From assembly GCF_048403405.1 (NCBI RefSeq), contig NZ_CP183129.1: a stretch of 64,000 nucleotides of DNA; one strand, 5' to 3'. Positions 17,756-47,356 of this stretch are shown in pieces. The number at the start of each line of letters is the position of its first letter. Positions within the stretch are counted from its first letter, which is position 1. Under the pieces are notes generated by a model, which searched no databases, had not been told where the DNA came from, and worked only from the letters and a program-made list of their open reading frames with translations. Both the position numbers and the translations under genes were made by a program. The DNA comes from Escherichia coli (GTDB taxonomy: Bacteria; Pseudomonadota; Gammaproteobacteria; Enterobacterales; Enterobacteriaceae).

Positions 17756-19117
17756 TCACTTACCGTGGGGGTTACGCGTGGTTTCCCCGGAGAAATTACG
17801 CATCAGGAGCGCGTAATTTAGCTCAAGATCCTGCGGCACCGGGATCCACACAGTATAACCATCGCCTGGTGCGACCGGCATAGCTTCACCTTTGGCGTTT
17901 TCCATATGCTCAAGGGTAAAGTTAATGTTGCCTTGCGGCGTCATCAGCTCAAGGCTGTCGCCAACGGAGAATTTATTTTTCACCGCTACCGCCGCGAGGT
18001 CGCCCTTGCGCTCACCGGTAAACTCACCAACAAACTGCTGGCGGTTAGAAACTGAATAACCGTATTCGTAGTTCTGATAATCGTCGTGAGTATGACGACG
18101 CAGGAAACCTTCGGTATAGCCACGATGCGCCAGACCTTCCAGAGTTTCCAGCAGGCTGGTATCGAATGGTTTGCCCGCAGCGGCATCATCGATAGCTTTA
18201 CGATAAACCTGTGCGGTGCGTGCGCAATAGTAGAAAGATTTGGTACGGCCTTCGATTTTCAGCGAATGCACGCCCATTTTGGTCAGGCGTTCTACATGGG
18301 CGATGGCGCGCAGATCTTTCGAGTTCATGATGTAAGTGCCGTGCTCATCTTCAAACGCGGTCATATACTCGCCCGGACGCTGGGCTTCTTCGATCATAAA
18401 CACTTTGTCAGTTGGTGCGCCGATACCCAGCGTCGGCTCAACATTTTGCACCGGAATCGGCTCGTACTTGTGTACGATGTTGCCAACGTCATCTTCTTTC
18501 CCTTCCTGGACGTTGTACTCCCAGCGGCAGGCGTTGGTGCAGGTGCCCTGGTTCGGGTCGCGCTTGTTGATATAGCCAGAGAGCAGGCAGCGACCGGAGT
18601 AGGCCATGCACAGCGCGCCGTGAACGAAGATCTCGATCTCCATATCCGGCACCTGATTACGAATCTCTTCAATCTCTTCCAGCGACAGCTCGCGAGAGAG
18701 GATCACGCGGGTCAGTCCCATTTGCTGCCAGAATTTCACCGTCGCCCAGTTCACGGCGTTAGCCTGTACCGAGAGATGGATCGGCATTTCAGGGAAGTGC
18801 TCGCGCACCAGCATAATCAGCCCTGGATCGGACATAATCAGCGCATCCGGCCCCATTTCCACCACCGGTTTCAGGTCACGGATAAAGGTTTTCAGCTTGG
18901 CGTTGTGCGGTGCAATGTTGACCACGACATAAAACTTTTTCCCCAGCGCATGGGCTTCATTAATGCCGAGCTGAAGATTTTCGTGGTTGAATTCGTTGTT
19001 GCGCACACGCAGGGAGTAACGTGGCTGGCCCGCATAAACAGCATCTGCGCCATAAGCGAAAGCGTAACGCATATTTTTCAGCGTTCCCGCCGGGGAAAGG
19101 AGTTCCGGTTTAAACAT
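17756..19117 (-). CDS. yegQ: Peptidase U32-family protein (tRNA uridine hydroxylase TrhP family), 453 aa
   Basis: ORF track; matches YegQ as recalled. Confidence 0.85.
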   Translation of the reverse strand: MFKPELLSPAGTLKNMRYAFAYGADAVYAGQPRYSLRVRNNEFNHENLQLGINEAHALGKKFYVVVNIAPHNAKLKTFIRDLKPVVEMGPDALIMSDPGLIMLVREHFPEMPIHLSVQANAVNWATVKFWQQMGLTRVILSRELSLEEIEEIRNQVPDMEIEIFVHGALCMAYSGRCLLSGYINKRDPNQGTCTNACRWEYNVQEGKEDDVGNIVHKYEPIPVQNVEPTLGIGAPTDKVFMIEEAQRPGEYMTAFEDEHGTYIMNSKDLRAIAHVERLTKMGVHSLKIEGRTKSFYYCARTAQVYRKAIDDAAAGKPFDTSLLETLEGLAHRGYTEGFLRRHTHDDYQNYEYGYSVSNRQQFVGEFTGERKGDLAAVAVKNKFSVGDSLELMTPQGNINFTLEHMENAKGEAMPVAPGDGYTVWIPVPQDLELNYALLMRNFSGETTRNPHGK

Positions 19118-19264
19118 AATTCTCTCGTTCTGATGACAGGTCAGATCCGCTTCACCTGATGAAGCGGCCAGGGGAGTGCCCCCACTTTAAGGGCGGGCAT
19201 TGTAGCGCTGTAGGGGGGAGCTGGTAAAGCGCCAGACGCCAACAACACGCGCCCGGCATCGTAA

Positions 19265-19597
19265 TTACGTATTGTCTTTCACCGTCTGGCTTGTGCCATT
19301 GGCTTTAACGGAGGCAATTCCGGTTTCACGAGATTGCGCGGTGGCGTACATCTGGCTGGAGCCGATAATTTGATGATTGGCGGCTTTCAGATTGAAATAG
19401 AATTTGCCGTTGCTTGCCGTTTTTTTCTCATAGCGTTCTTCTTGCGGGCTGTTGCTACGCACCGACGCGATACCCTTTTCCGCAGAGGCTTTTGAGGTAT
19501 ACAGCTCGCTGGTGAGGATAGTCTCACCATTGCCCGCTTTTAGCACAAACCGGAACTGATTATCACTGCTCTTACTGAGTTCAAACCAACCAGCCAT
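19265..19597 (-). CDS. yegP: UPF0339/DUF1508 tandem-repeat protein, 110 aa
   Basis: ORF 19265..19636; start placed at MAGWFELSK; internal duplication visible (…FVLKAGNGETI… / …FNLKAANHQII…). Confidence 0.75.
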   Translation of the reverse strand: MAGWFELSKSSDNQFRFVLKAGNGETILTSELYTSKASAEKGIASVRSNSPQEERYEKKTASNGKFYFNLKAANHQIIGSSQMYATAQSRETGIASVKANGTSQTVKDNT

Positions 19598-19776
19598 AAT
19601 GACTCCTTGATTGAAATTGCGTATCGAAAACAGCATCTAAAGGTACTGTTTGCCAATTAAAGTATGAGCGATTTTCTGGTGCCTGCCAGGGCGGAGAGAT
19701 CATGTCAGTTTGCTGACCATGCGTGGGATAATGTTGCCGGATCTGGTCTGAAGGCCATCTCCGGCAGGTAAAAATG

Positions 19777-30989: not shown

Positions 30990-31128
30990 AACGGGAAAGC
31001 CCCTCCCGAGGAAGGGGCCTTAAATAAGGAAAGGGTCATGATGAAGCTACTCATCATCGTGGTGCTCTTAGTGATTAGCTACCCAGCATACTAAGACTAC
31101 CAGGGCGGGGGAAACCCCGCTCTACCCT
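30990..31128 (-). ncRNA. Sib-family antisense sRNA (type I antitoxin), copy 1; ends approximate
   Basis: Minus-strand promoter-like TTGACA-17-TACTTT near 31135..31165 and hairpin gcccct/aggggc plus U-rich tail near 30995..31018; fully overlaps ibs copy 1. Confidence 0.5.
31038..31094 (+). CDS. Ibs-family type I toxin peptide, copy 1 (MMKLLIIVVLLVISYPAY)
   Basis: 18-codon ORF with SD aaggaaagggtc upstream; Ibs-like hydrophobic peptide. Confidence 0.75.
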   Translation: MMKLLIIVVLLVISYPAY

Positions 31129-31317
31129 CACTCCTGAAAGTATGCCTTCACGATAAGATTGTCAATCTGCAGGCTTTGCAGTCTGCGATCCTGCCAGCAA
31201 ATATTCTTTGCGAGACGTTACGCAATAATCACACTGGAAACTATTTTATCCGCAAGTCAGCGATAGACTGCATACAGGGCGAAAGGAGGTAAGCCGACGA
31301 TTTCAGCGGGACGCTGA

Positions 31318-31456
31318 AACGGGAAAGCCCCTCCCGAGGAAGGGGCCTTAAATAAGGAAAGGGTCATGATGAAGATACTCATCATCGTGGTGCTCTTAGT
31401 GATTAGCTACCCAGCATACTAAGACTACCAGGGCGGGGGAAACCCCGCTCTACCCT
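31318..31456 (-). ncRNA. Sib-family antisense sRNA, copy 2; ends approximate
   Basis: Same elements at equivalent positions in repeat unit 2. Confidence 0.5.
31366..31422 (+). CDS. Ibs-family type I toxin peptide, copy 2 (MMKILIIVVLLVISYPAY)
   Basis: Same position within repeat unit 2. Confidence 0.75.
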   Translation: MMKILIIVVLLVISYPAY

Positions 31457-31646
31457 CACTCCTGAAAGTATGCCTTCACGATAAGATTGTCAATCCGCAG
31501 GCTTTGCAGTCTGCGATCCTGCCAGCAAATATTCTTTGCGAGTCGTTACGCAATAATCACAGAGGAAACTATTTTGGTCACGCGTTAGCGATAGACTGCA
31601 TTCAGGGCGAAAGGAGGTAAGCCGACGATTTCAGCGGGACGCTGAA

Positions 31647-31790
31647 ACGGGAAACCCTCTCCCGGAGAAGAGGGCTTTTAATAAGGAAAGGGTTATGATG
31701 AAGCACGTCATCATACTGGAGATACTCTTAGTGATTAGCTTCCAGGCTTACTAAGAACACCAGGGGGAGGGAGAAACCTCTCCCTAACCC
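31647..31790 (-). ncRNA. Sib-family antisense sRNA, copy 3; ends approximate
   Basis: Equivalent position in unit 3; minus-strand TTGACA-17-TAATTT promoter-like element near 31800..31830. Confidence 0.45.
31695..31754 (+). CDS. Ibs-family type I toxin peptide, copy 3 (MMKHVIILEILLVISFQAY), IbsA-like but with an internal Glu
   Basis: 19-codon ORF in repeat unit 3; GAG codon read directly from sequence. Confidence 0.7.
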   Translation: MMKHVIILEILLVISFQAY

Positions 31791-31974
31791 TCACTCCTGA
31801 AATTATGTCACTCCGCCCTTAGTGTCAATCGACGGCTCTCCGTTCTTGCGAGGCGAATAGCAAAATTTTCTGCGCCGCCGGGCCTAATTCTGAAAGTTTC
31901 TTCGTTTGCTCTTATTTCATTATTGCAATCGGTATGATACCGGGCCTCAATAATTCTCTAAGAAAGGATTTCTT

Positions 31975-42693: not shown

Positions 42694-44547
42694 ATGAGAC
42701 GATTTCTGACGACGCTGATGATACTCCTGGTCGTGCTGGTGGCCGGGTTATCTGCGTTAGTGTTGCTGGTGAATCCGAATGATTTCCGCGACTATATGGT
42801 CAAGCAAGTTGCTGCACGTAGCGGTTATCAATTGCAGCTCGACGGGCCACTGCGTTGGCACGTCTGGCCGCAGCTTAGTATCCTCTCCGGGCGAATGTCT
42901 CTCACCGCCCAGGGCGCGAGCCAGCCACTGGTTCGCGCCGACAACATGCGTCTGGACGTGGCGCTTTTACCACTACTGAGTCATCAACTGAGCGTTAAGC
43001 AGGTGATGCTAAAAGGGGCAGTGATCCAACTGACGCCGCAGACGGAAGCGGTGCGCAGTGAAGACGCTCCGGTTGCACCGCGCGACAATACCTTGCCGGA
43101 TCTGTCAGACGATCGCGGATGGTCGTTTGATATATCCAGTCTTAAGATGGCGGACAGCGTGCTGGTGTTCCAGCATGAAGATGACGAGCAGGTGACAATC
43201 CGCAATATCCGCCTGCAAATGGAACAAGATCCCCAACATCGTGGCTCATTTGAGTTCTCCGGGCGGGTTAATCGCGATCAGCGCGACCTCACGATATCCC
43301 TTAACGGTACGGTAGATGCTTCTGATTATCCGCATGATTTAACGGCGGCTATTGAACAAATTAACTGGCAGTTGCAGGGTGCAGATTTACCAAAACAAGG
43401 TATTCAGGGGCAGGGGAGTTTCCAGGCCCAGTGGCAGGAGTCACATAAACGCCTTTCATTTAACCAAATTAGTTTGACCGCCAATGACAGTACGCTGAGC
43501 GGGCAAGCACAGGTCACGCTGACAGAGAAACCGGAATGGCAGCTGAGACTGCAATTCCCGCAACTGAATCTTGACAACCTCATCCCGCTTAAAGAAACAG
43601 CGAACGGTGAAAACGGTGCCGCGCAGCAAGGGCAGAGCCAATCCACGTTGCCGCGCCCGGTCATTTCTTCGCGTATTGATGAACCGGCCTATCAGGGATT
43701 GCAAGGCTTTACGGCTGATATTTTGTTGCAGGCCAGTAACGTGCGCTGGCGCGGAATGAATTTTACAGATGTTTCCACGCAAATGACCAACAAGTCGGGT
43801 TTGCTGGAAATTACTCAACTGCAGGGCAAGCTTAACGGTGGACAGGTTTCGCTGCCGGGCACGCTGGACGCGACATCAATAAATCCGCGGATAAACTTCC
43901 AGCCACGGCTGGAAAACGTTGAGATTGGCACCATTCTGAAGGCGTTTAACTATCCGATTTCGTTGACTGGAAAGATGTCACTGGCTGGTGATTTCTCCGG
44001 TGCTGACATAGATGCCGACGCATTCCGCCACAACTGGCAAGGACAGGCACATGTCGAAATGACCGACACACGCATGGAAGGGATGAACTTCCAGCAGATG
44101 ATTCAGCAAGCGGTAGAACGTAATGGTGGTGATGTGAAGGCCGCTGAAAACTTCGATAACGTAACGCGTCTTGACCGCTTTACCACCGATTTGACGTTGA
44201 AGGATGGCGTCGTGACGTTAAACGACATGCAAGGTCAATCGCCAGTGCTGGCGCTGACAGGGGAAGGCATGTTGAATCTGGCAGATCAAACCTGCGACAC
44301 CCAGTTTGACATTCGTGTGATTGGTGGCTGGAACGGAGAAAGCAAACTGATTGATTTCCTCAAAGAAACGCCAGTACCGCTGCGGGTTTATGGCAACTGG
44401 CAGCAACTCAATTACAGCCTGCAAGTGGATCAGTTACTGCGCAAACATCTACAGGACGAAGCGAAACGTCGCCTGAATGACTGGGCCGAGCGGAATAAAG
44501 ATTCCCGCAATGGCAAAGATGTGAAGAAGTTGCTGGAGAAGATGTAA
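42694..44547 (+). CDS. asmA: Outer-membrane assembly protein AsmA, 617 aa
   Basis: ORF track; N-terminal TM anchor; matches AsmA as recalled. Confidence 0.85.
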   Translation: MRRFLTTLMILLVVLVAGLSALVLLVNPNDFRDYMVKQVAARSGYQLQLDGPLRWHVWPQLSILSGRMSLTAQGASQPLVRADNMRLDVALLPLLSHQLSVKQVMLKGAVIQLTPQTEAVRSEDAPVAPRDNTLPDLSDDRGWSFDISSLKMADSVLVFQHEDDEQVTIRNIRLQMEQDPQHRGSFEFSGRVNRDQRDLTISLNGTVDASDYPHDLTAAIEQINWQLQGADLPKQGIQGQGSFQAQWQESHKRLSFNQISLTANDSTLSGQAQVTLTEKPEWQLRLQFPQLNLDNLIPLKETANGENGAAQQGQSQSTLPRPVISSRIDEPAYQGLQGFTADILLQASNVRWRGMNFTDVSTQMTNKSGLLEITQLQGKLNGGQVSLPGTLDATSINPRINFQPRLENVEIGTILKAFNYPISLTGKMSLAGDFSGADIDADAFRHNWQGQAHVEMTDTRMEGMNFQQMIQQAVERNGGDVKAAENFDNVTRLDRFTTDLTLKDGVVTLNDMQGQSPVLALTGEGMLNLADQTCDTQFDIRVIGGWNGESKLIDFLKETPVPLRVYGNWQQLNYSLQVDQLLRKHLQDEAKRRLNDWAERNKDSRNGKDVKKLLEKM

Positions 44548-44558
44548 GACAAGTTATG

Positions 44559-44588
44559 CAGATGGCGGCGTCAATTTGTCGCCATCTG
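44559..44588. terminator. Stem-loop (cagatggcg-12 nt-cgccatctg) followed by tatttat; candidate terminator between convergent asmA and the antitoxin gene
   Basis: Perfect 9-bp inverted repeat read from sequence. Confidence 0.45.
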
Positions 44589-44599
44589 TATTTATAGCA

Positions 44600-44890
44600 C
44601 TAAGCAGCATGTGGATATTGAATTTCAATACGTTGAATATGCAATCCTGCATGAGCCATCATGGTGATCAATTTATCGATACTAAAGATCTGGATCTTAC
44701 CTCTGGCAAGTTCAGATATGCGAGGTTGAGTGACCCCTAAAGCAGACGCTGCCTGGGCCTGGCTAAACCCTTGTTGTTCAATCCAGTTATTAATGATCGT
44801 TACAAGTTCGGCACGGATCCGCATATTTTCCGCTTGTTCAGGGGTGTCACTCACCGCATCCCACACACTATCAAAGGTTTCAATTTTCAT
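44600..44890 (-). CDS. HTH (XRE/Cro-C1) antitoxin, HigA-like, 96 aa
   Basis: ORF 44600..44908; ATG at 44890 (MKIETFDS) preferred over the upstream TTG; HTH segment QAQAASALGVTQPRISELARGK; overlaps toxin stop by 11 nt. Confidence 0.75.
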   Translation of the reverse strand: MKIETFDSVWDAVSDTPEQAENMRIRAELVTIINNWIEQQGFSQAQAASALGVTQPRISELARGKIQIFSIDKLITMMAHAGLHIQRIEIQYPHAA

Positions 44891-45218
44891 TTTTCCGCTC
44901 CTGAACAAGTTCTTTATAGCGTCGTTTGGCTAAATCAACATCCGATTGACTGGTAGTCTGTGTTTTCTTTTGAAAACAATGCAATACGTAAACCGCTTCT
45001 TCAAATTTTGCGATATACATGACGCGATAGATCCCATCAGCATCGCGAGTACGAATCTCTCGCACACCAGGGCCGATAGTTGAAAAAGGTTTCCAGTCGT
45101 ATGGGTTTAACCCTTGTTGGATCCTGTCGAGTTGATAGCCAATTTCCTGTCGAGACGATTCTGGAAATGCGCGTAAATCGTCAAGACTGGTATCAAGAAA
45201 AGCCAGCTTTTTTCTCAT
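44880..45218 (-). CDS. RelE/ParE-superfamily toxin (HigB/Gp49-like), 112 aa
   Basis: ORF track; small basic protein upstream of and overlapping an HTH antitoxin (toxin-first order typical of HigBA); SD aaggatggag upstream. Confidence 0.7.
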   Translation of the reverse strand: MRKKLAFLDTSLDDLRAFPESSRQEIGYQLDRIQQGLNPYDWKPFSTIGPGVREIRTRDADGIYRVMYIAKFEEAVYVLHCFQKKTQTTSQSDVDLAKRRYKELVQERKNEN

Positions 45219-45255
45219 TACTCCATCCTTAGATTATACTAAATTTTGTATAAAT

Positions 45256-45284
45256 CAAATGCGCAGTTTGAACCTGCGCATTTG
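45256..45284. promoter_or_regulatory. Perfect 11-bp inverted repeat (caaatgcgcag-7 nt-ctgcgcatttg) beside the toxin promoter (-10 TATAAT at 45233..45238, minus strand); candidate autoregulatory operator and/or yegH terminator
   Basis: Read directly from sequence; lies between the yegH stop (45293) and the toxin start (45218). Confidence 0.5.
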
Positions 45285-45292
45285 ATGTTTTA

Positions 45293-46876: not shown

Positions 46877-47344
46877 AGTAAGTACAAAACCTATTCGTTG
46901 TATGACAAATGTCACAATTCGATCATGGATAAATCGGGGCAAAAATGCAATGTTGCAGCACTATTTATCTCATATTATTTGAGGGTAATAACCTCACATT
47001 ACCCCTGAATTAAAAGTGGTAATAATAAAACATTATTTAAGAAATATCGCATGTGGAGACACTATATTAAATATTGTCAACCTAAAGAAACTCCTAAAAA
47101 CCATATTGAATGACACTTAATATAATTCTTAAAAATAGCCAATTGCCGAATTGTTACCTTGCCTGCTATTCCGTTAGCTGTAACACTTCCTCCTGCATTA
47201 TTGGAGAGCCAATATTCAATTACCATAATGTCACCTTATATTCGGAAGTTAATTTCCGCAATAACCCTTTCTCATCAACGACTGTATGTTGAGAGGGTTT
47301 TAAAAATTAAGCTAAATCAGTGTATTGGTAGCTAAAAAGCCAGG

Positions 47345-47356
47345 GGCGGTAGCGTG
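47345..47356 (+). promoter_or_regulatory. ops element (GGCGGTAGCGTG) within a JUMPStart-like leader upstream of wza
   Basis: Exact ops 12-mer read from sequence about 180 bp upstream of the wza ATG; RfaH-dependent antitermination site in polysaccharide operons. Confidence 0.7.

Follow-up and report, generated by a model that had tools for sequence, protein, structure and literature searches.

A toxin-first Gp49/HTH_37 gene pair, very probably a type II toxin-antitoxin operon, occupies the asmA-yegH spacer in part of the Escherichia coli population

Results and discussion

A two-gene cassette between asmA and yegH

We analysed a 64,000-nucleotide stretch of an Escherichia coli genome (assembly GCF_048403405.1, contig NZ_CP183129.1; hereafter the window, to whose full length all coordinates refer), in which a cassette of two overlapping minus-strand genes lies between asmA and yegH. 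We conclude with high confidence that this pair is a chromosomal, canonical type II toxin-antitoxin (TA) operon of the Gp49 (HigB-like)/HTH_37 kind. The anatomy of the locus, the protein families, the fold, the conserved residues, the pairing, a palindrome that co-varies with the antitoxin, signs of horizontal origin and an asymmetric decay were computed here. From these we infer, for the toxin, that it is toxic and cleaves RNA in dependence on the ribosome and, for the pair, neutralisation, operator binding and a biological role. Both the kind of module and its annotation are already on record, RefSeq labelling both genes correctly, and as an ordinary member of a well-described family it carries little weight for discovery. 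It nevertheless represents an uncharacterised TA module in O157:H7, O55:H7, S88 and many clinical lineages. The cassette consists of the following parts:

44880 to 45218, minus strand: toxin gene, Gp49 family, 112 amino acids (aa), ATG at 45218, stop codon ending at 44880
44600 to 44890, minus strand: antitoxin gene, 96 aa, ATG at 44890, stop at 44600, encoding an HTH_37/XRE-type DNA-binding protein
44548 to 45292, minus strand: whole strain-variable cassette, which is the complete asmA-yegH spacer of this allele, 745 bp

An earlier sequence-only reading of this stretch had described two overlapping open reading frames (ORFs) with the toxin first, and the coordinates bear this out, including the 11-nt overlap at 44880-44890. 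The Shine-Dalgarno motifs that it mentioned were found ahead of both genes, as AGGA/GGAG at 45229-45221 for the toxin and as GGAG at 44901-44898 for the antitoxin, the ATG following 7 nt further on. A mechanical ORF list places the antitoxin start at a TTG at 44908; we took the ATG at 44890 instead because the homologues and the NCBI Prokaryotic Genome Annotation Pipeline (PGAP) begin at MKIETF. The computed isoelectric points are 9.0 for the basic toxin and 5.5 for the acidic antitoxin. PGAP labels the toxin 'RelE/ParE family toxin' (WP_001227700.1), the antitoxin is RefSeq protein WP_000687871.1, and identical proteins are recorded on at least 1000 contigs.

The toxin is a Gp49-family protein with a RelE-like fold

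The toxin matches Pfam Gp49 (PF05973) at 102.3 bits (E=1.5e-29), its residues 13-102 covering all 90 positions of the profile. In the same scan, taken up to E=10, the only other match was a spurious one, and HigB_toxin, HigB-like_toxin (PF05015), RelE and ParE_toxin were all unmatched. Judged by these profiles, the protein is a 'HigB' in a loose sense only: the Gp49 half of the HigB/Gp49 assignment made from the sequence alone stands, whereas its HigB half does not correspond to the families of that name. PF05973 is present in all 120 listed toxin homologues, and relatives of the toxin number more than 6700 in the protein collection searched. Gp49 is one of 13 RelE/ParE families, with about 22,000 members, a toxin-then-antitoxin gene order and ribosome-dependent mRNA degradation (PMC11980606).

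An AlphaFold2 model built with 52 homologues (predicted local distance difference test, pLDDT, 92.7; predicted template-modelling score, pTM, 0.85) displays a beta-alpha-alpha-beta4 topology followed by a long C-terminal helix (residues 91-111); Gp49-like toxins typically have such an extended alpha3 (PMC9098466). Foldseek searches of the PDB, with top matches at probability 1.00, ranked Mycobacterium tuberculosis HigB1 first (7awk/7nbu, template-modelling (TM) score 0.68), followed by Streptococcus pneumoniae HigB, Thermus thermophilus RelE, ParE2, Vibrio cholerae HigB2 and YafQ. The basic, RelE/ParE-like character attributed to the toxin by the sequence-only reading is thus supported by its charge, its Pfam match and its modelled fold.

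No sequence alignment of the toxin to HigB1 (7awk) could be obtained, even with a profile at E<=10, and we therefore mapped the pocket residues through S. pneumoniae HigB, the only PDB entry detectable by the toxin sequence (E=0.001-0.02), and through published equivalences. Toxin residues R65, F82 and K84 align with R73, F90 and K92 of S. pneumoniae HigB, which correspond to R77, F93 and K95 of HigB1 and to R61 and R81 of RelE, and whose mutation removes toxicity (PMC9098466). In addition, E54-x-R56 reproduces the E66-x-R68 motif, a correspondence placed by motif. All five residues (E54, R56, R65, F82 and K84) are invariant in the 52-homologue alignment. The agreement with the RelE-type pocket is nevertheless only partial, as two further HigB1 positions, N73 and K99, appear by spacing to lack conserved counterparts.

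The antitoxin is an XRE-type protein and accompanies the toxin across species

The second protein matches Pfam HTH_37 (PF13744; E=4.9e-22), with weaker matches to HTH_3 and HTH_31, and its AlphaFold2 model (pLDDT 88.8) adopts a five-helix XRE fold, in line with the XRE-type helix-turn-helix (HTH) partner described earlier. Its nearest folds are those of two uncharacterised HTH_37 proteins, 2o38 and 2a6c, followed by HipB, S. pneumoniae HigA and M. tuberculosis HigA2; 2a6c is also detected by sequence (E=3e-14), with a TM score of 0.84 (normalised by target length) and 41% identity.

Pairing and upstream sequences were counted in the best 80 of at least 574 toxin-encoding stretches in species-representative genomes. 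An antitoxin homologue lies directly downstream of the toxin, on the same strand, in 79 of these 80 loci, and the pairing extends through Proteobacteria and beyond. Upstream of the toxin gene in the window, a palindrome overlaps a promoter-like hexamer:

45234 to 45253, no strand assigned: putative operator palindrome TTATAC-N8-GTATAA, an inverted repeat with the core ATACAAAATTTAGTAT at 45236-45251, overlapping the -10 box
45233 to 45238, minus strand: perfect -10 hexamer TATAAT, supplied by the right arm of the palindrome, presumed operon promoter

The promoter is assigned because this hexamer is present and because the arrangement TTGC..N17..TATAAT recurs family-wide. With up to three mismatches allowed, either ATACAAAATTTTGTAT or the version with exchanged arms, GTATAAAATTTTATAC, was found within the upstream 120 nt in 72 of the 80 loci, compared with 1 of 1377 background windows, and the centre of the palindrome mostly lies 23-25 nt ahead of the start codon. 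The order of the arms follows the type of antitoxin, form A occurring in 63 of 67 loci with a short-type antitoxin and the swapped-arm form B in 12 of 12 loci with a long-type one. The operator 21-mer is moreover identical upstream of homologues on Salmonella plasmids, despite unrelated surroundings. Taken together, these comparisons suggest that the palindrome is the putative operator of the antitoxin, and since arm order co-varies with antitoxin type, we consider the comparative evidence good. The data thereby give a precise operator prediction.

The long-type loci (L027, L028, L061, L064, L069, L072, L075, L082-L084, L087 and L089) belong to a toxin sub-clade with a longer, divergent HTH antitoxin, which is N-terminally extended, aligns from about residue 21-25 at 30-36% identity and is preceded by GTATAAAATTTTATAC. 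From these sequences, the sub-clade looks like a natural switch of repressor-operator specificity.

The cassette replaces an ancestral spacer and has plasmid-borne relatives

In alignments of spacer alleles, homology between the window and other E. coli breaks off precisely at two stop codons, that of asmA (44547) and that of yegH (45293). A simple insertion into an empty site is therefore ruled out, the whole spacer between both stop codons having been replaced; the sequence-only reading was right about the location between asmA and yegH but not about a clean insertion there. It had also described the K-12 interval as empty. Neither TA gene is present in K-12 MG1655, but the K-12 spacer, although free of genes, comprises 273 bp, consisting of a repetitive extragenic palindromic (REP)-like unit and what is left of a non-coding sequence of 388 bp that we call element X, namely its first 195 and final 23 bp. 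Because the module is absent from K-12, this strain offers a clean host for testing it.

Other E. coli spacers contain REP+X in full (451 bp), only the REP unit (67 bp, CFT073) or other deletions. The loci examined in E. fergusonii, E. whittamii and Escherichia sp. E4742 all contain REP+X and nothing cassette-like, and no homologue above 70% identity was present in species-representative genomes among the matches listed. On these two grounds we take REP+X as ancestral and the TA cassette as a derived replacement within E. coli.

The nearest relatives outside E. coli are those of Salmonella (79-80% aa identity), which lie beside tra/exclusion genes or IncFII repA. In the Salmonella enterica plasmid homologues (L092 and L096), the toxin is 79-80% and the antitoxin 72-78% identical at the aa level; the shared core (45258 to 44613, about 645 bp) begins at the operator, stops shortly before the antitoxin gene does and has 73-74% nt identity, and outside this core the sequences are unrelated. 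Pantoea plasmids carry homologues at 66% nt identity. The cassette has a G+C content of 42%, compared with 52% for asmA, yegH and the whole window. By these sequence signs, namely its low G+C content, its plasmid-borne nearest relatives and its absence from other Escherichia spacers, the cassette is horizontally acquired. The core would have come from a plasmid-type module, and within part of the E. coli population it took, jointly with two flanking hairpins, the place of the ancestral REP+X. Both terminal hairpins are specific to the E. coli cassette and absent from the plasmid homologues:

45254 to 45286, no strand assigned: hairpin with a 13-bp stem, an inverted repeat that separates the TA promoter from the yegH stop; RNA folding energy -24.2 kcal/mol, z=-6.1
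44556 to 44591, no strand assigned: hairpin, an inverted repeat in the gap towards which asmA and the antitoxin gene converge; folding z-scores -5.3 (plus strand) and -3.1 (minus strand)

Both are far more stable than shuffled controls. The first is probably a yegH terminator or insulator, and the second a likely bidirectional terminator; no known RNA family was detected within the cassette at gathering thresholds.

Several features of the alternative spacer were recorded alongside. The ancestral form (L003:749-1199; L101:4855-5305; L102:4855-5313; L103:4855-5388) combines a REP/naRNA4-like unit with element X, and X gives a recurrent match to Rfam TwoAYGGAY that stays below threshold (29-31.5 bits, gathering threshold 43), its strand following the orientation of X. 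X is inverted in Escherichia sp. E4742 and E. whittamii, where two inverted REP copies flank it. Across all 451 bp, the E. fergusonii spacer shares 97.8% identity with one E. coli allele, whereas the AsmA proteins are only 87% identical.

The toxin decays while the antitoxin is kept

Among 5426 complete E. coli genomes, about 909 (approximately 17%, or about one genome in six) carry the cassette at least in part, so that the pair is strain-variable, as had been proposed. At a coverage of 80% or more, the cassette was detected in 792 genomes, the toxin gene in 790 and the antitoxin gene in 908, that is, in 908 of the 909 carriers. Among the named carriers are O157:H7 Sakai (ECs_2869, 'toxin RelE', and ECs_2870), O55:H7, S88 and Shigella dysenteriae.

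Approximately 119 genomes keep only part of the toxin gene, mostly its 3' half joined to position 64 of element X; in this type of allele (L008), the antitoxin is retained along with the 3' half of the toxin gene, and the promoter and operator are lost. A recurrent 23-bp frameshift of the toxin gene corresponds to deletion between two short repeats:

45123 to 45131 and 45146 to 45154, no strand assigned: two 9-bp direct repeats, CCTGTCGAG

This deletion allele, annotated 'frameshifted' as in L006, was found in about 60 of the records that cover the toxin gene, namely those that the toxin search placed at 90-95% identity. IS1 is inserted inside the toxin gene in at least two strains, and one strain has lost the cassette nearly completely. 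No genome with the toxin alone appeared in any listing. Overall, the toxin is disrupted and the antitoxin intact in about 20% of carriers, through at least four different lesions. An active toxin, which bars prior loss of the antitoxin, would be expected to leave this pattern, and the population thus displays a textbook case of toxin-first decay.

Compared with the Salmonella homologues, the nonsynonymous divergence (dN) is 0.12-0.18 and synonymous sites are saturated; between E. coli lineages, the antitoxin has a ratio of nonsynonymous to synonymous divergence (dN/dS) of 0.04. On this measure of sequence divergence, the pair is under purifying selection.

Sequence comparisons also bear on how alleles arose. 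The hybrid allele at L008:1501-2391 joins TA cassette positions 1-502 to X 64-451 and occurs in roughly at least 100 genomes, and a second one (L009:2501-2900) joins TA 1-104 to X 82-348 with a deletion that reaches into yegH. Microhomology at the junctions is absent or short, and these sequences suggest illegitimate recombination between two unrelated spacer alleles. The two parts of the operon (44600-44890 and 44891-45218) diverge in a mosaic fashion. Relative to O157:H7 Sakai, the antitoxin gene of the window has seven synonymous differences (dS 0.126, 97.1% nt identity), whereas the toxin gene has none (99.4% nt identity); population-wide, the antitoxin half is mostly 95-99% identical and the toxin half mostly at least 99% identical. 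This suggests a recombination breakpoint inside the operon.

Three E. coli 'plasmid' records match the cassette at 98-99%. A plasmid location in E. coli was considered and rejected: the one record inspected, of 43 kb (H73/L011), carries the chromosomal udk-dcd-asmA context and is therefore a chromosomal fragment; the other two are 365 and 438 kb long. In the 43-kb record, the toxin of strain NDM2 (L011:5338-5676) bears a W42C substitution at a position at least 90% conserved in the family alignment, which may represent a further inactivating allele. The PLSDB gene table, which is incomplete, contains no antitoxin coding sequence for this record.

Relation to characterized systems and proposed mechanism

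The best structural match, M. tuberculosis HigB1 (Rv1955), belongs to the same Gp49 family and has in common with the cassette toxin a RelE-like beta-sheet with a long alpha3 helix and the E-x-R, R, F-x-K pocket pattern. The two proteins differ in being only 18-20% identical, and HigB1 is part of a three-component system of toxin, antitoxin and chaperone (TAC) with a SecB-like chaperone, whereas the cassette has no chaperone gene. In S. pneumoniae HigBA (6af3/6af4), the pocket residues align and HigA chains are among the antitoxin fold matches; the similarity is, however, weak and partial (the C-terminal 40 residues), and the antitoxin is of another sequence family.

K-12 HigBA (YgjN/YgjM) and HigBA of Proteus vulgaris Rts1 are organized as in the cassette, with a toxin of the RelE superfamily first and an XRE-HTH antitoxin second. 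Both are autoregulated at palindromes that overlap the promoter. Their HigB toxins fall in other Pfam families (HigB_toxin/HigB-like_toxin), which the cassette toxin does not match at E<=10.

By contrast, the exact PF05973 and PF13744 pair, toxin first, is found in modules of Tn3-family transposons (Tn4662a, TnPosp1 and others; PMC7157771) and in the founder pairs gp49-gp48 of N15 and tad-ata of pAMI2 (PMC5906591). N15 gp49 is 32% identical to the cassette toxin. Validated relatives include N15 gp49, pAMI2 tad-ata and Acinetobacter baumannii HigBA (PMC5906591). The Tn3, N15 and pAMI2 modules reside on transposons, plasmids and a prophage, whereas the cassette is chromosomal, lacks mobility genes and has its own flanking hairpins.

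HigB1 is a ribosome-dependent mRNase that acts at the A site (PMC9098466), and by analogy the cassette toxin would enter the ribosomal A site and cut mRNA there. The HTH_37 antitoxin would neutralise it by direct binding and, alone or in complex with the toxin, would occupy the palindrome at 45234-45253 and repress the operon.

Alternative explanations

Several points weigh against the conclusion that the pair is a functional TA operon, or against parts of it. Neither protein reaches the cut-off of NCBIfam equivalog models for related TA families, the toxin scoring 24.8 bits against TIGR02683 (upstrm_HI1419 toxin; cut-off 62.85) and the antitoxin 16.3 bits against TIGR02607 (HigA antitoxin; cut-off 47.7). 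There is no good -35 element at 16-18 nt from the -10 hexamer, and a consensus scan of the minus strand calls no complete sigma-70 site. At the positions of HigB1 N73 and K99, the toxin appears to have D61 and T88, both unconserved, in a mapping made by spacing only. No experimental work on the module was found in the literature, including by O157:H7 locus tags, and a search for asmA/yegH together with toxin found only a paper on O-antigen switching, which makes no mention of the module. Finally, HigB2 and HigB3 of M. tuberculosis belong to the Gp49 family and are non-toxic, lacking some of the pocket residues (PMC9098466). The cassette could thus encode a Gp49 homologue whose toxicity is weakened or lost, along with the HTH protein, as a small autoregulated pair or as neutral baggage, which its chromosomal location and weak -35 would accommodate. 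We consider this unlikely, since the five pocket residues are invariant and the C-terminal helix of the toxin is positively charged, unlike the negatively charged helix of HigB2 and HigB3. Furthermore, the decay is asymmetric in the direction expected of an active toxin, and the closest relatives adjoin plasmid replication and transfer genes, a typical setting for addiction modules. That the toxin acts instead as a ParE-like gyrase poison would fit the ambiguous PGAP label and the presence of ParE2 (5cw7, 5czf) among its fold matches, but the TM score for ParE2 is only 0.43-0.52, compared with 0.68 for HigB1, Pfam returns Gp49 rather than ParE_toxin, and RelE-type catalytic residues are conserved. 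In addition, a toxin-then-antitoxin order with an HTH antitoxin is the HigBA pattern, whereas ParDE has an antitoxin-then-toxin order and a ribbon-helix-helix antitoxin (PMC11980606). A gyrase poison is therefore very improbable.

A different question is what a canonical type II TA operon of this kind would do for its host; it may be a remnant of an addiction module. Its main role might be phage defence by abortive infection, or anti-addiction against plasmids that carry the 79-80% identical module, and either would be compatible with the TA mechanism. A part in defence is discussed for toxins of RelE/ParE-superfamily TA modules (PMC11980606), the toxin matches the phage family phrog_2523 (E=3.6e-36), and homologues of the toxin occur in Mycobacterium abscessus prophages (56% identity) as well as in phage N15; for anti-addiction, the 21-bp operator shared with the Salmonella plasmid copies is suggestive. 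On the other hand, PADLOC-DB yielded weak partial matches only (NsnC, E=0.0024; PDC-M64C, E=6.9e-5), and a defence-system assignment by this route was dropped. No defence island surrounds the cassette and no phenotype is known for the module, so that we hold such a main role to be doubtful, if less so than the two readings above. More specifically, the cassette, and especially the orphan antitoxins found in about 20% of carriers, might serve as an anti-addiction or immunity element against plasmids with the identical 21-bp operator, in which case the toxin knock-outs would reflect selection and not merely the order of decay. We regard this as a long shot. If it were true, the two operator/antitoxin classes across 80 species would constitute naturally orthogonal repressor-operator pairs.

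Genomic surroundings and other variable sites in the window

The cassette is flanked by asmA (42694-44547, plus strand) and yegH (45293-46876/46942, minus strand), with udk-dcd-asmA on one side and yegH-wza on the other. No transposase, integrase or phage genes flank it, in agreement with the earlier remark that mobility genes are missing. The polymorphic spacer adjoins the colanic-acid/O-antigen recombination hotspot and could be used as a lineage marker.

Strain CLSC36 is identical to the window across the 1301-bp TA region (100%), whereas the first 50 kb differ. Its yegQ-yegP interval contains a TA pair of the parD/parE type (L100:18789-19383), which the corresponding interval of the window (17756-19636) lacks; on both counts, the window does not stem from CLSC36. 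The yegQ-yegP interval is thus another strain-variable TA site, 25 kb from the cassette. The window also contains three tandem copies of Sib RNA, a type I antitoxin, at 31023-31828 (141-146 bits). K-12 has two Sib copies, sibA and sibB, at the mdtA-yegL site, and two ibs toxins are annotated at that site in CLSC36.

On the other side of yegH, in the gap before wza, PGAP annotates a hypothetical 49-aa ORF (WP_162829205.1; 47077-47226), which lies just upstream of the colanic-acid operon's JUMPstart element (47318-47356, 57.3 bits).

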